Source: Halomonas sp. (GTDB taxonomy: Bacteria; Pseudomonadota; Gammaproteobacteria; Pseudomonadales; Halomonadaceae). Taken from it: a DNA stretch of 64,000 bases. A program made the position numbers and the translations under genes. The stretch is from NCBI GenBank assembly GCA_024636705.1, contig JAGXGN010000061.1:2264-66263 (forward strand), given 5' to 3'. Below, piece by piece: positions 53,603 through 58,891 of the stretch. The notes under the pieces were generated by a model. That model saw nothing but the letters and a program-made list of their open reading frames with translations, was not told the DNA's origin and made no database searches. How positions within the stretch are numbered: the first letter of the stretch is position 1; every line of letters begins with the position of its first letter.

Positions 53603-54181
53603 TCAGTGGCGGATATCGTCCTCGTCTTTCTCGACCCGGGGCATGCCGGGATGCTGTTCGGTATAGAGCAGCATGGCGGCCAGACGCGCATGCTCGGTCA
53701 GAGCGAAGAGGTCGTTCTCGTTCTCGGAGCTGTCATCGAGATCGGCCTCCATCCCGGCGAGCCCCTCAAGGTCCTCCAGCGCCTCGCGCAACGCAGACGA
53801 CCACCCCCGTCGCGGGGCGTCACCGGCATCCTCGACGACCTCGAGAAACCCCTGGGTCCACTCCTTGAGGCCCTGAGCGCGCTCGGCGAGAGAGAAGAGC
53901 TCATCCGGCAGCAGGGGCTCGAAGTCGAGTTCCGCGGCCGCCAGGGCGTCCAGGGTCTGGCGCCGCCAGGCCAGGAAACGCTCGGCGCTGTCCTCATCCC
54001 GGGGCACATCGACTCCCAGGGAGAGGCAAACCTGCTCCAGCCAGGCGTCGGCCGGCAGATCCTGCAAGGCCAGGCCGGCGCAGAGTCGACCATCGAGAAA
54101 GGCGGGCGACTGCATGCTACCGTGCAGCAGGAAGAGGTCGGCGATGGATGAAAAATCCTGGCGTTCGTTGATCAATGACAT
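53603..54181 (-). CDS. UPF0149 (YgfB) family protein
   Basis: FEPLLPD, ERAQGLKEWTQGFL, EHARLA; synteny with pepP and zapA. Confidence 0.87.
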   Translation of the reverse strand: MSLINERQDFSSIADLFLLHGSMQSPAFLDGRLCAGLALQDLPADAWLEQVCLSLGVDVPRDEDSAERFLAWRRQTLDALAAAELDFEPLLPDELFSLAERAQGLKEWTQGFLEVVEDAGDAPRRGWSSALREALEDLEGLAGMEADLDDSSENENDLFALTEHARLAAMLLYTEQHPGMPRVEKDEDDIRH

Positions 54182-54360
54182 GACAACACCTTGGGGGAAC
54201 CGAGCCTGCCGGGCGTTCCGGTCTAGCGGACAGATTGACCGCCCGAGAAAAGCTCTCTTATAGTGAGGATCGAATGGTATTCTGCACGGATGTTAACGCA
54301 TCGGACCCCCCGAAGGCGCGTCCATCGCCGCCGACCGTGTGCACCGAACCGGAGCCCATC

Positions 54361-54660
54361 ATGACCGATGCCCCACGCCAAACCAAGGAAATCACCCTAC
54401 TGGGTGGCAGCTATGTGGTTGCCTGTCCTCCACAGGAGGAAGCCAAGCTCGAACGCGCCGCACGCTACCTAGACCGGGCGATGCATGGCATCCACGCCCA
54501 GGGAAAGGTACTAGGCGCCGAGAAGATCGCCATCATGGCGGCACTGAACATAACCCATGAGCTGCTCGAGGCCCTCGACGCCCAGCGTGACGGCGAGGAG
54601 ACTCTCAGCCAGCTCAGTACTCGCCTAGATCAGGCATTGGTCGACATGTCGGGTCGCTGA
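54361..54660 (+). CDS. zapA: Cell division protein ZapA
   Basis: YVVACP, AARYLD, IAIMAALNI. Confidence 0.92.
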   Translation: MTDAPRQTKEITLLGGSYVVACPPQEEAKLERAARYLDRAMHGIHAQGKVLGAEKIAIMAALNITHELLEALDAQRDGEETLSQLSTRLDQALVDMSGR

Positions 54661-54675
54661 CTCGCCATCTCCTCT

Positions 54676-54703
54676 TTGGCCTCACCCATTGCTCTGTTAG
54701 GAT
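54676..54703 (+). promoter_or_regulatory. Putative sigma70 promoter of 6S RNA
   Basis: TTGGCC-16 bp-TAGGAT with TGn extension, placed for a start near 54710. Confidence 0.55.
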
Positions 54704-54709
54704 GAAGGT

Positions 54710-54890
54710 GTTCCCTGGGGTGTTTGCCAGTCGTTATCGTCCCTCGAGCCTATGCGCATTACCCAGGGGGCCATATGCTAGCCGAGCCTGTGTGCATGTC
54801 CGTGCGACGGAAAGCCTGACGGTTCGGCTGCGGCCACCCACCTTGAACCACTGGGTTCAGGGCCAGAACGACAGCGGCACTCTGGGGAAC
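54710..54890 (+). ncRNA. ssrS: 6S RNA
   Basis: Ends pair (GTTCCC...GGGAAC); CCTTGAACC...GGTTCAGGG element; lies between zapA and ygfA. Confidence 0.93.
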
Positions 54891-54900
54891 CTCATCCGAC

Positions 54901-55539
54901 ATGACGACCATGCAGGATACTGCCGCTCCCACTTCACACGATGACTCGCGTCGCGCCCTTCGCCGTGCGCTGCGTAATCGTCGCCGTGCCCTGACGCCGA
55001 GCGAGCGTCAAGAGGCCGCACGCCGCCTGTGCCGACACCTCAGGCAACTGCCGGAGCTTCAGCGCGCCCGCCGTGTCGCCCTCTACCTGCCCAACGACGG
55101 TGAAATCGACCCCACACCTCTGCTGCCCTGGTTGCGCCGGCGTAATGTCCGCATCCATCTGCCGGTGCTGCGCCCGCTGTCACGCAATTCGCTCTGGTTC
55201 GTCCATTACCATGCCGACACACCCATGGTGGTCAACCGCTTCGGCATTCCTGAACCCGACACCTGCCATGGCGCTCATCGGGCTCACCGCTGCCCGGCCT
55301 GGGCGCTGGACCTGATCCTGTTGCCTCTGGTGGGCTTCGATGGCGCCGGCCGGCGCATCGGTATGGGCGGCGGCTTCTATGATCGCACCCTGGCATTCAG
55401 CCGGCAGCACAGACCCAGGCCACGCTTGATCGGCCTCGCTCACGATTGCCAGGGTGTCGAGCGACTGCCGGCGCAACCCTGGGACGTGCCGCTGGACACC
55501 ATCGTCACCGACCGGGCAGTGATCCGTCCCCGAGGCTGA
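54901..55539 (+). CDS. ygfA: 5-formyltetrahydrofolate cyclo-ligase
   Basis: NRFGIPEP, PLVGFD, RIGMGGGFYDR, WDVPLD. Confidence 0.94.
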   Translation: MTTMQDTAAPTSHDDSRRALRRALRNRRRALTPSERQEAARRLCRHLRQLPELQRARRVALYLPNDGEIDPTPLLPWLRRRNVRIHLPVLRPLSRNSLWFVHYHADTPMVVNRFGIPEPDTCHGAHRAHRCPAWALDLILLPLVGFDGAGRRIGMGGGFYDRTLAFSRQHRPRPRLIGLAHDCQGVERLPAQPWDVPLDTIVTDRAVIRPRG

Positions 55540-55544
55540 ACGCC

Positions 55545-55585
55545 GGAAACAGGAACGGGCCGATGCGGTGGGCATCGACCCGTTC
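55545..55585 (-). terminator. Hairpin terminator for the minus-strand micro-gene (possibly bidirectional)
   Basis: 14-bp stem GAACGGGTCGATGC-CCACC-GCATCGGCCCGTTC then CTGTTTCC; U.G wobble only on the minus strand. Confidence 0.65.
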
Positions 55586-55638
55586 GGAAAACGGTCGGAT
55601 CATGATCCTGCCTCGACGGCTGAATCACCGCTTTCGGG

Positions 55639-55734
55639 CTAGCCTCCTGCCAGCGCCTGGGCATAGCCGGTTGCCACCACACCAATGCCGAAGATCAACA
55701 CCAATGCCATGACCAGATCGGGCTTGCGCTTCAT
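55639..55734 (-). CDS. 31-aa single-TM small protein MKRKPDLVMALVLIFGIGVVATGYAQALAGG
   Basis: GGAG RBS 7 nt before ATG; basic N-terminus plus hydrophobic helix; flanked by promoter and terminator motifs. Confidence 0.72.
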   Translation of the reverse strand: MKRKPDLVMALVLIFGIGVVATGYAQALAGG

Positions 55735-55832
55735 TGTCGACTCCATGGGAGACTCGACCACGAGGGTCGGGAGAAAACTCGTCGAAAACGTCTTGTCGTG
55801 TCGCCTCCACTGCCAGCGGGCATCGGCAACGA

Positions 55833-55849
55833 CGCAACTATAGGGCCAG
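55833..55849 (-). promoter_or_regulatory. Sigma54-like (-24/-12) promoter of the micro-gene
   Basis: CTGGCCCTATAGTTGCG = TGGC-N7-TTGC. Confidence 0.62.
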
Positions 55850-55957
55850 TACCGGCATCAGGACAACCTAATACCCAGGCGAGTTACATTTTTAAACACT
55901 CGACGGCGCTAGGCCCGACGGTAAGTCCGCGTTCACCTCGAACAATGCGGCAGGGGA

Positions 55958-57472
55958 TCAGGCCATGAAGAGGCGATAGGCCGGATTGTCGGTTTCCTTC
56001 CAGTAGCGATAGCCGATCTCGTCGAAATACTCCTCGACATGGGCGCGGTCGCCGTTGGGTACCTGCATGCCCACGAGCACTCGGCCGTAGGCCGCCCCAT
56101 GATTGCGATAATGGAACAGCGAGATGTTCCAGTCCTGGGGCAGGTGGGTCAGGAAGTTCATCAGCGCGCCCGGGCGTTCCGGAAACTCGAAGCGATAGAC
56201 TTCCTCGTCGAAGTGTTCCCTGGCGCGGCCGCCGCCCAGGTGACGAATATGCAACTTGGCAAGTTCATTGTCGGTCAGATCCTCCACCGGGTAGCCCCCA
56301 TCCGTCAACTTGCCGATCACCGCCTGACGATCCTCGCCGCCGGGCTTGACCTGGACGCCGACGAAGATATGGGCGTTATCGGGATCGGCATAACGGTAGT
56401 TGAACTCGGTGACCATCCGCTTGCCGATGGTCTTGCAGAACCTTTTGAAACTACCGGGTTTTTCCGGAATCGTCACCGCCAGGATTGCCTCGCGCTGTTC
56501 ACCCAGTTCGGTGCGCTCGGCGATGTGCTGGAGGCGGTCGAAGTTGGTGTTCGCCCCGGAATTGATACAGAGCAGGGTCTGGCCCTCGGCCCCGGTCTGC
56601 TGAATATATTTCTTCAGACCGGCCAGCGACAAGGCACCCGAGGTCTCGGAAACGGCGCGGGTATCCTCGAAGATATCCTTCACCGCGGCACACATCTCGT
56701 CGGTATTGACGGTAATGACGTCGTCGACGAGGTCCTGGATGATCGAGAAGGGCACCTCGCCGATCTGCGCCACGGCCACCCCCTCGGCGAAGACGCCGAC
56801 TTGGTCGAGCACCACCCGTTCACCCGCCTCGAGCGCGGCCTTGAGACAAGCGCTATCCTCGGATTCCACCCCAATCACCTTGATCTCCGGGCGCAAATAC
56901 TTGATGTAGGCCAGCATGCCGGCCAGCAGACCACCGCCGCCCACGGGCACGAAGATGGCATCGATGGGACCACTGTGCTGATGCAGTATCTCCATGGCGA
57001 TGGTGCCTTGCCCGGCGATGACGTCGATGTCGTCGAAGGGCGGGATATAGGTATAGCCGTGTTCCTTGATCAATTCCTGGGCATGGACGGCCGCCTCGGC
57101 GAAGGCATCCCCCTTGAGCACTACCCGGGCGCCGCGGGCACGGACCGCCTGGACCTTGATCTCCGGCGTGATCCGCGGCATCACGATTACCGCCTTGACG
57201 CCCATCTGCCTTGCCGCCATGGCCAACCCCTGGGCATGGTTACCCGCCGACGCCGCGATCACGCCCTTGGCCTTCTGCGCCTCGCTGAGCTGCGCCATCT
57301 TGTTGTAGGCGCCGCGAATCTTGAAGGAAAAGACCGGTTGCAGGTCCTCGCGCTTGATCAGGATCTGGTTGTTGAATCGCCGGGAGAGGAAGGGCGCAGG
57401 CGAGATGGGGGTTTCCACGGCCGCTTCATAGACGCGGGCCTGGAGTATCTTCTTGACGGTTGATTCGAGCAT
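55958..57472 (-). CDS. ilvA: Biosynthetic threonine ammonia-lyase
   Basis: [32 protein letters not shown], two regulatory ACT repeats. Confidence 0.97.
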
Positions 57473-57632
57473 CCTGATGTCCCGAGGGAGTAACGCGAGC
57501 AGCGCAGCGATCTATGTTGCACCGCAGAGAACCCCTATTGGTAGCATTGTGGTGGCCCCGAGTCCAGCCGGCATCGGCAGGGATCCATCACTGCTCTATA
57601 ATGGCGTCCGTCCATCAACCAGCGAGCACCCC

Positions 57633-58307
57633 ATGACCCAGGACGAACTCAAGGACGCCGTGGCGGCAGCCGCCATCGTCGAAATCATGCCGCGGCTGGA
57701 ACGCGATACCATCCTCGGCATCGGCACAGGCTCCACGGCCAATCGGTTCATCGACCGGCTGGCGGCCCTGCGTGACGACTTTCAGGGCGCCGTAGCCAGC
57801 TCCGAGGCCAGTGCCGAGCGTCTGCGCGGACACGGCATCGAGGTCTTCGAGCTCAACAGCGTCGGTCGCCTACCCTTCTATATCGACGGGGCCGACGAAG
57901 TGAATGCTCACTTACAGATGATCAAGGGCGGCGGTGCGGCCCTGACCCGGGAGAAGATCGTTGCCGCCTGCAGCACGCGTTTCATCTGTATCGCTGATGC
58001 CTCGAAACGGGTCGAGCGGCTGGGGCGGTTTCCGCTGCCGATCGAGGTGATCCCCATGGCGCGCTCCTATGTCGCACGAGAGCTGGTCAAGCTCGGTGCC
58101 GATCCCGTCTATCGTCAAGGCCTGGTCACCGACAACGGCAACCAGATCATCGACTGCTTCGACTTCATGATCGATGACCCGGTCGACATGGAAGCACGCC
58201 TGAACGGCATCGTCGGGGTGGTCACCAACGGCCTCTTCGCCACTCGAGGGGCAGACGTGCTGCTGCTCGGCTCGGTTAGTGGCGTGGAACGACTCACCCT
58301 GGACTGA
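57633..58307 (+). CDS. rpiA: Ribose-5-phosphate isomerase A
   Basis: [29 protein letters not shown]. Confidence 0.97.
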
Positions 58308-58450
58308 TGGACAACCGCCATCGTTGCAGGCTTCCCGCTATGTCCGCCAACGCACGGATGACAACGGGCCCATGCCATATATACTCAAAAATGGATATGA
58401 CGAACAGATATCAGCCCGATACCGCGTCACATCCGCCAAAGGAGAAACCT

Positions 58451-58525
58451 ATGAACAATATCGTCTGGATCGTGGGGGCGGTGGTCATCGTTCTCTTCGT
58501 GCTATCGGTGCTTGGGCTGCGTTGA
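58451..58525 (+). CDS. 24-aa hydrophobic small protein MNNIVWIVGAVVIVLFVLSVLGLR
   Basis: Strong AAGGAG RBS; one TM helix. Confidence 0.7.
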   Translation: MNNIVWIVGAVVIVLFVLSVLGLR

Positions 58526-58672
58526 AACAGACGCTTCAAGCCATTGTGTGCGATATCAGACGGAAAGCGCCCCTTGCGGGTGCTATCCTGATGTTATTGG
58601 TGACCGGCAGCAGCACCGCGCCATGGGTTCCTTCCGCTGCAAGCACTACCTCTCACTCCGAGTGACACCCTC

Positions 58673-58891
58673 ATGAAACCCCTCAAGTTCCTTGTTACGA
58701 GTCTTGCCATTTCAGCCGTGCTGCTGAGCCTGACGGCATGTTCCGGCATGTCGCGCCAGGACAGGAACACCGCCATTGGTGCAGGCGCCGGCGCCGTGGG
58801 TGGCTCCGTACTCACTGGCGGCAGCGCCATCGGCACCGTGGGCGGGGCCGCCGTCGGCGGCGTGATCGGCCACGAAACCAGCAAGCCCTGA
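58673..58891 (+). CDS. osmB: Osmotically inducible glycine-zipper lipoprotein OsmB
   Basis: Lipobox LTAC; DRNTAIGAGAGAVGGSVLT...GGAAVGGVIGH. Confidence 0.9.
   Translation: MKPLKFLVTSLAISAVLLSLTACSGMSRQDRNTAIGAGAGAVGGSVLTGGSAIGTVGGAAVGGVIGHETSKP

Follow-up and report, generated by a model that had tools for sequence, protein, structure and literature searches.

A conserved 31-codon gene convergent on ygfA in Halomonas: a predicted cleavable signal peptide with a six-residue tail and a predicted sigma70-family promoter

Judged by its conservation in relatives, the open reading frame at 55734-55639 on the minus strand of the Halomonas sp. window (the whole stretch of 64,000 nucleotides analysed here) is a real gene, and the encoded 31-residue micro-protein is likely to be a cleavable Sec/SPase I signal peptide plus six residues. 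A preliminary description of this DNA had proposed a hidden stand-alone unit on the minus strand, which encodes a membrane micro-protein and is transcribed from a sigma54 promoter. Altogether, the gene is real, the promoter call was wrong and the product is more unusual than had been proposed. Neither the signal-peptide nature of the product nor a sigma70-type -35/-10 pair overlapping the sigma54-like motif was part of that description, and all the elements which it listed were found at their positions when the sequence was inspected again.

The gene is located in the 418 nt between the stop codons of a ygfA-like gene (54901..55539, plus strand), which is the last gene of zapA-6S-ygfA and the conserved convergent neighbour, and an ilvA-like gene (55958..57472, minus strand), which lies upstream on the same strand. 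The names ygfA, ilvA, zapA and S41 protease were taken from the preliminary description and from the translations, with no family scan. An Rfam scan of positions 54000-58000 showed a 6S RNA at 54709-54892 (E 1.5e-20), upstream of ygfA, and no further match; the position of this RNA between the zapA-like and ygfA-like genes corresponds to the usual arrangement. Elsewhere in the window an rpiA-like gene is followed by two small genes spanning 58307-58891. One is a short membrane-peptide ORF within 58307-58525; the other, at 58673-58891, encodes 72 aa, is lipoprotein-like and contains a glycine-zipper-like repeat.

When 60 relatives were searched at the DNA level, 35 of 36 same-genus genomes matched, and 29 of the 30 same-genus loci returned carried the ORF with 77-100% identity. 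For 28 distinct 31-codon copies a pooled pairwise dN/dS of 0.18 was determined with zero stops, and the variable columns were distributed as 15, 7 and 23 over codon positions 1, 2 and 3. The five other frames showed dN/dS values of 0.39-3.7, and all of them contained stops in some sequences. The supposed hidden unit with its conserved membrane micro-protein is thus supported by conservation, and the frame is conserved in same-genus as well as in Pseudomonadales relatives. In a further set of named Halomonadaceae loci, comprising the best 80 of 152, partially overlapping with the first set and biased to close matches, the ATG start and 31 codons were found in 80 of 80, the ilvA-like neighbour also in 80 and the convergent ygfA in 79. 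The Shine-Dalgarno sequence GGAG (55741..55744, minus strand), 6 nt before the ATG, is kept in 79/80 of these relatives. Two longer in-frame starts, GTG at 55761 and ATG at 55746, were considered and rejected: the Shine-Dalgarno sequence precedes 55734, and the upstream ATG often reads ACG or GGG in relatives. In one same-genus genome (G031, locus L023 on G031:C10) the gap between ilvA and ygfA is nearly gone, and a genome-wide search of it revealed no copy of the gene. Since this genome is 99% complete, the gene is not essential, and the case represents a natural loss which is useful for phylogenetic profiling.

The named matches belong to Halomonas, Litchfieldella, Chromohalobacter, Salinicola and their kin, and nearly all of those carrying a name are called "hypothetical protein". 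In a profile search, 103 of 301 genomes of the order proved to contain relatives (E<=0.01, the source genome G000 counted, weak matches not all inspected), and a wider profile detected them in 31 of 300 genomes of the class. The matches passing an E value of 0.001 comprised 90 representatives at 50% identity, among them Pseudomonas, Stutzerimonas and Azotobacter; the Pseudomonas relatives with a K-P-D-L...G-Y-A-Q pattern, which the preliminary description had mentioned, were indeed found. All 21 inspected order-level loci outside the Halomonadaceae were convergent on ygfA, as were 14 of 28 class-level loci; together this makes 35 of the 49 more distant loci. As the genomes are related to each other, such counts do not represent independent trials. 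Furthermore, the members were gathered by N-terminal profiles, which introduces a bias to a conserved N-terminus that is offset by ygfA synteny for the syntenic copies only. The source genome, which is 80% complete, contains a single copy of the short gene, and the plasmid collection searched gave no match. The peptide, together with 18 homologues, 7-10 non-syntenic forms and an alignment of the long forms described below (A3), was scanned against Pfam and NCBIfam, and no family over cut-off was obtained except in P0064. This lone record of 103 aa, which carries a hydrolase fragment in its C-terminal part and probably represents an assembly chimera, was set aside.

The layout of the peptide comprises a basic n-region (K2-R3-K4), P5-D6, a hydrophobic core with a 19-residue hydropathy maximum of 2.32, and G23-Y24-A25. 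Residues 1-25 are predicted to form the Sec/SPase I signal peptide and residues 26-31 the tail. Small residues at -3 and -1 of the predicted site (positions 23 and 25) were found in 45 of 47 diverse members, and the peptide contains no Cys and consequently no lipobox Cys. No residues except P5-D6, on the presumed cytoplasmic side, are invariant. L11, F15, G18 and T22 are conserved as well, and their spacing suggests a single helical face. Thus, the peptide shares the n-, h- and c-regions and the (-3,-1) rule with Sec/SPase I signal peptides, as well as the cut position in an orthologue. It differs from ordinary ones in being conserved twice as strongly, in its invariant P-D and in a cargo of 2-7 residues in some lineages.

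The cut position comes from Pseudomonas stutzeri. The orthologue there is SEP6 (Pstu14405_RS01495, WP_003282866.1), which belongs to the same family by sequence and whose translation was seen by digest-free mass spectrometry (PMC10433244); its row in the supplement was located by the family motifs. With 50 aa and a 25-residue tail it is longer than the Halomonas peptide with 31 aa and a six-residue tail. SEP6 was detected only in undigested extracts, by a single peptide (3 spectra, 50% coverage), and the annotated spectrum covers residues 26-50, starting directly after G-Y-T (PMC10433244, supplement files 1 and 3). This start corresponds to the cut expected from signal peptidase I, from which we infer the enzyme. 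The fragment could instead originate from turnover or from proteolysis at lysis, and the cleavage position is based on one peptide (3 spectra) of one species other than Halomonas. The Halomonas form with its six-residue tail may be a poor substrate of the peptidase. In the table of PMC10433244, SignalP made no call for SEP6, LipoP returned "TMH" and TMHMM called a TM helix. The name SEP6 has 0 occurrences in the main text of that paper, it is listed as a hypothetical protein, and the sections covered here deal neither with its function nor with a cleavage or a promoter.

Ordinary signal peptides drift and are then discarded. Compared to this, the comparison of conservation within the same 11 genomes gave an unusual picture: residues 1-25 of the peptide were 85% identical, whereas the S41 protease encoded in the window showed 44% in its signal region (32 residues before the core) and 80% in its mature core. 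In conservation, the signal of the short gene consequently exceeds even the mature core of this housekeeping protease, and its cargo goes down to a few residues. Among diverse members the tails range from 4 to 43 residues with no motif shared across families. Within the Halomonadaceae, all 80 tails are hexapeptides similar to Q-[AT]-L-x-G-x with Q26 and G30 fixed, and the tail is 73% identical with Q26, L28 and G30 conserved; this would also be compatible with a helix that stays uncut or with a hexapeptide that is itself active. Four genomes, from two families, contain an additional tandem short paralogue of about 29-35 aa located between the main copy and ygfA (L173:1249-1371, L174:1555-1752, L175:1291-1521 and L176:1368-1472), with 2-7 residues after the predicted site. 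As far as these sequence comparisons can tell, it is the signal and not the cargo that evolution preserved.

The same signal was also found at the head of longer proteins. Of 14 non-syntenic class-level loci, 7 encode proteins of 114-152 residues which share this N-terminus and end in Trp; one of the others ends at 98 residues and six comprise 49-64 residues. In the long form the signal precedes a beta-rich domain of about 110-130 residues ending in Trp, and this terminal-Trp strand we take to be similar to an outer-membrane beta-signal. A short ygfA-linked copy and a long one occur together in two genomes. Starting from the long copy of Sulfuriflexus mobilis, 38 homologues were obtained, and in the alignment of 34 of them with the 7 long loci (A3) only the Pro of the signal and the last Trp were invariant. 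The signal profile of the short family gave a median of 24.6 bits for the 34 long signals, which had been gathered by whole-protein search, compared to at most 7.6 bits for any other of the 53,286 frames of the source genome. In the reverse direction the profile of the long-form signal ranked the peptide of the window first in this genome, though weakly, with 10.0 vs 7.8 bits. A weak match in genome G537 (E 8.5e-4) was discarded as a different protein. As a further observation, translations show a family of 114-170 aa with K-P-D signal, beta-sheet domain and terminal Trp, several members of which lie near rsmA/pdxA/apaH-like genes (L171:2651-3124, L172:2030-2566, L079, L080, L082, L084, L085, L086 and L090), and for which no Pfam or NCBIfam match was obtained.

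The structure model of a long paralogue shows a helix followed by a beta-sheet (pLDDT 74, pTM 0.55). A Foldseek search with this model gave no match at E<=0.001, and VIA returned outer-membrane barrel fragments with a best Z of 6.8, which is below the level that would mean more than a common sheet. By Atlas features the long paralogue was placed near outer-membrane barrel-like clusters and, at 0.90, the NtrZ cluster. The Caulobacter protein NtrZ (PF20841) is proposed as a periplasmic regulator of a sensor kinase (bioRxiv 10.1101/2021.04.17.440287). Both NtrZ and the long paralogues are small, signal-bearing and beta-rich; unlike NtrZ, 0 of 41 long forms matched PF20841 at E<=1, and the peptide of the window contains no such domain.

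The promoter scan of the window revealed TTGTCC-18-TATAGT at 55866-55837 on the minus strand, i.e. a predicted -35 hexamer TTGTCC (55861..55866; family consensus TTGTCA) and a predicted -10 element C-TATAGT (55837..55843), from whose spacing a start site near 55830 is predicted. A -35/-10 pattern with 17-18 nt spacing was found in 74 of the 80 Halomonadaceae loci compared to 1.6 in shuffles, and in all 36 ORF-bearing Halomonadaceae loci; TATAGT itself was present in 73/80 vs 2.4 in shuffles. The conserved promoter is accordingly predicted to be an ordinary one of the sigma70 family and not a sigma54 promoter. A C at -13, found in 72 of the 74 loci with a called promoter, is a trait of sigmaS, and the good conservation of the -35 is in line with sigma70, so that either factor may be used. 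With TGTAA and GTTGTC as its elements, an ECF-sigma promoter may overlap this one. A search of RNA runs yielded one run with 5% of the words, mostly on contigs from other strains, and no transcript or start site for this organism. The Pseudomonadaceae orthologues possess a different promoter, which by eye is also sigma70-like with a -35/17-nt/-10 layout. In these loci (L039-L047) a palindrome of the CCGAC-N1-3-TCGG type was noticed by eye about 90-140 nt before the ATG, just upstream of the sigma70-like promoter.

The sigma54-like match TGGC-N7-TTGC (55834..55848, minus strand), from which the preliminary description had derived its promoter, is judged to overlap the -10 element by chance. A GG-N10-GC at -24/-12 is indeed present in the window with correct spacing (55848-55834, minus strand). 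The strict motif was found in 0 of the 80 named Halomonadaceae loci (shuffles 0.3) and, in the first same-genus set, in 1 of 29, namely the window itself; the loose GG-N10-GC occurred in 15/80 compared to 20.8 in shuffles, and the source genome holds 218 copies of a -24/-12-type motif. The "TGGC" and "TTGC" of the window are the flanks of the conserved GGCCC-TATAGT. The -12 TTGC results from a T-G-C after the conserved TATAGT, which was seen in 0 of the 74 relatives with a called promoter.

Upstream of the promoter a box GTTT-N5-TGTAA is located at 55884..55897 (minus strand), about -67 to -54, which is a class I activator position. In the form GTTT-N4/5-TGTAA it was found in 44/80 loci, compared to 0.18 for shuffles, with its end located 16-17 nt ahead of the -35. 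The palindrome GAGT-N13-ACTC (55881-55901), which surrounds it and had been regarded as a sigma54 enhancer, occurs in 1 of 80 loci; its outer part is not conserved, and what is conserved is the inner box phased to the -35. PWM scans of the 80% complete source genome ranked the box as a unique top site and gave no comparable further one. By eye, the plus strand at 55884-55898 agrees at 14 of 15 nt with the OmpR C1 site of E. coli as printed in PMC2586830, and the box matches 7 of 8 positions of the RstA box TACA-N6-TACA (PMC4117788 and PMC8562477). An OmpR over the family cut-off was found neither in the source genome nor in 5 of 5 relatives, and an RstA-like regulator below the cut-off was present in the source genome and the five relatives (6/6). 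The difference of the Pseudomonadaceae promoter indicates that the families do not share the regulator. A 12-bp palindrome, GTRAGYRCTVAC, was observed in the stretch from the ilvA stop to the promoter in 37 of the 80 Halomonadaceae loci (L091-L170; raw count); it is absent from the window and occurs once elsewhere in the source genome. It resembles a SlmA-binding site and is a candidate for one.

At the other end of the unit a 14-bp hairpin (55553..55585, minus strand) follows the stop codon. With -26.4 kcal/mol it showed a z of -6.0 on the minus strand, on which alone it is fully paired, vs a z of -2.7 on the plus strand. A hairpin after the stop was found in 74 of 80 Halomonadaceae loci, with a T-rich end on the strand of the gene in 47/74 vs 14/74 on the ygfA strand. 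The hairpin of the window has only a weak U tail, and a strict terminator scan of the window did not call it. From its conservation, the hairpin likely terminates the 31-codon unit and forms a barrier to the convergent ygfA transcript. Its core, YCGATGC-loop-GCATCGR, recurs at five other places in the source genome (contigs C56, C72, C118, C136 and C143) and is possibly a small repeated terminator or REP-like element.

The explanation which we prefer, and to which we assign about even chances, is that a short-lived cleavable inner-membrane helix would be the functional unit and bind a specific partner, and that the tail would be a by-product. Conservation suggests that a sigma70 or sigmaS polymerase would start near 55830, that a factor at -67 to -54 would tune transcription, and that transcription would stop at the hairpin facing ygfA. 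Translation of the ORF is shown by the selection described above and, for one orthologue, by mass spectrometry. The peptide would then insert into the inner membrane N-in/C-out through Sec or YidC, and signal peptidase I would presumably cut after G-Y-[A/T], also in Halomonas, freeing the unconserved tail; the position of this cut is the one seen in the P. stutzeri orthologue. The face L11-F15-G18-T22 together with the P5-D6 cap might pack on a transmembrane helix of the partner, for which sensor kinases, transporters and export components are candidate classes. A complex prediction of the peptide with an RstB-like kinase dimer (N-terminal 320 residues) gave a score of 0.00, which speaks neither for nor against this. 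With G at -3 and in many cases T at -1, the cleavage site is not ideal; this would determine the lifetime of the helix, and the peptide could therefore report export or signal-peptidase capacity.

The foremost alternative, which we regard as rather unlikely, is an ordinary uncleaved single-pass accessory subunit or regulator, for which the cut in P. stutzeri would be a shaving of the dispensable periplasmic tail. It differs from the preferred explanation only in whether cleavage matters. A single hydrophobic helix with a conserved small-residue face would be expected for such a protein, the named Atlas clusters closest to the peptide, at 0.76-0.77 and so under the lead threshold, are YncL and YoaK, both of them small membrane proteins, and TMHMM and LipoP indicate a TM helix in SEP6 (PMC10433244, table). 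However, the cut sits exactly at the conserved (-3,-1) site, and the same signal unit heads the longer beta-rich proteins, where it stands before a V-x-A-type site. MgrB, AcrZ, KdpF and CcoM are small single-pass membrane regulators or subunits. The peptide resembles them in a size of about 30-50 aa, one helix, an own unit or conserved position and a presumed helix-helix contact; unlike them, it has a conserved peptidase site and is kin to the signals of longer exported proteins. CcoM is named in the abstract of PMC10433244.

A more far-reaching reading, improbable in our view, is that an exported beta-signal protein of other gammaproteobacteria lost its cargo and that the signal became a stand-alone gene throughout the Pseudomonadales. 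It would act as a reporter substrate, whose cleavage rate would signal export capacity, or would free a short diffusible peptide. That the gene encodes a precursor of a diffusible peptide in the first place, either the released tail or the C-terminal part of the signal peptide after a second intramembrane cut, is less probable still. The released-tail variant would be Phr/AimP-like and the intramembrane-cut variant enterococcal-pheromone-like. A small precursor with signal peptide and cut site, the Halomonadaceae hexapeptides with fixed Q26 and G30, the good conservation of residues 18-25 across the family, and tails differing among families as in pherotypes would all be in line with this. On the other hand, tails of 2 to 43 residues have no common motif, the sole invariant residues P5-D6 are on the cytoplasmic side, and no receptor or regulator gene was adjacent in the loci inspected, the neighbours being ygfA and ilvA in 79-80 of 80. 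The likeness to Phr/AimP precursors and enterococcal pheromones thus consists in a very small precursor that is exported, or in a signal peptide serving a second purpose; the differences are the Gram-negative host, the lack of an adjacent receptor and the lack of a mature peptide conserved between families.

A type I toxin or dual-function sRNA, the latter also raised in the preliminary description, appears very improbable. In E. coli an Ibs/Sib pair is located after ygfA, the short hydrophobic peptide with a leader is likewise encoded downstream of ygfA, and the convergent ygfA transcript could serve as antisense. Against this stand the one copy in the source genome, the strict synteny and the purifying selection. 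The leader length varies from about 26 to 198 nt among the 80 Halomonadaceae loci, leader folding was no better than in shuffles (z +1.35) and the Rfam scan gave 6S only; moreover, the SEP6 orthologue was seen in normally growing cells (PMC10433244). A sigma54-dependent unit activated from GAGT-N13-ACTC is hardly tenable: apart from the correctly spaced motif in the window itself, the strict motif and the palindrome are practically absent from relatives, the loose motif is at chance level and motif copies abound in the genome.

The databases already contain the ORF under the name hypothetical protein, and mass spectrometry has detected one orthologue. No description or function of the family was found in the literature covered; subscription papers and bioRxiv supplements were outside this coverage and may list it in Ribo-seq or small-protein tables. 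The family motifs are absent from the supplements of PMC8545117 and PMC10903887, and for PAO1 the 366-nt gap that follows PA5228 is free of CDS entries in the feature table of PMC8545117.

Without functional tests, the gene would be one more hypothetical small membrane protein. It belongs, though, to a family which lacks a Pfam or NCBIfam model and yet is found in about one third of the Pseudomonadales genomes sampled, with one member confirmed by mass spectrometry in a laboratory Pseudomonas relative (P. stutzeri). If the loss-of-cargo reading were true, it would mean a Phr- or pheromone-like signal in Gram-negative bacteria including Pseudomonas. In any case, the gene bears on the question whether a Gram-negative signal peptide can itself be a regulator.
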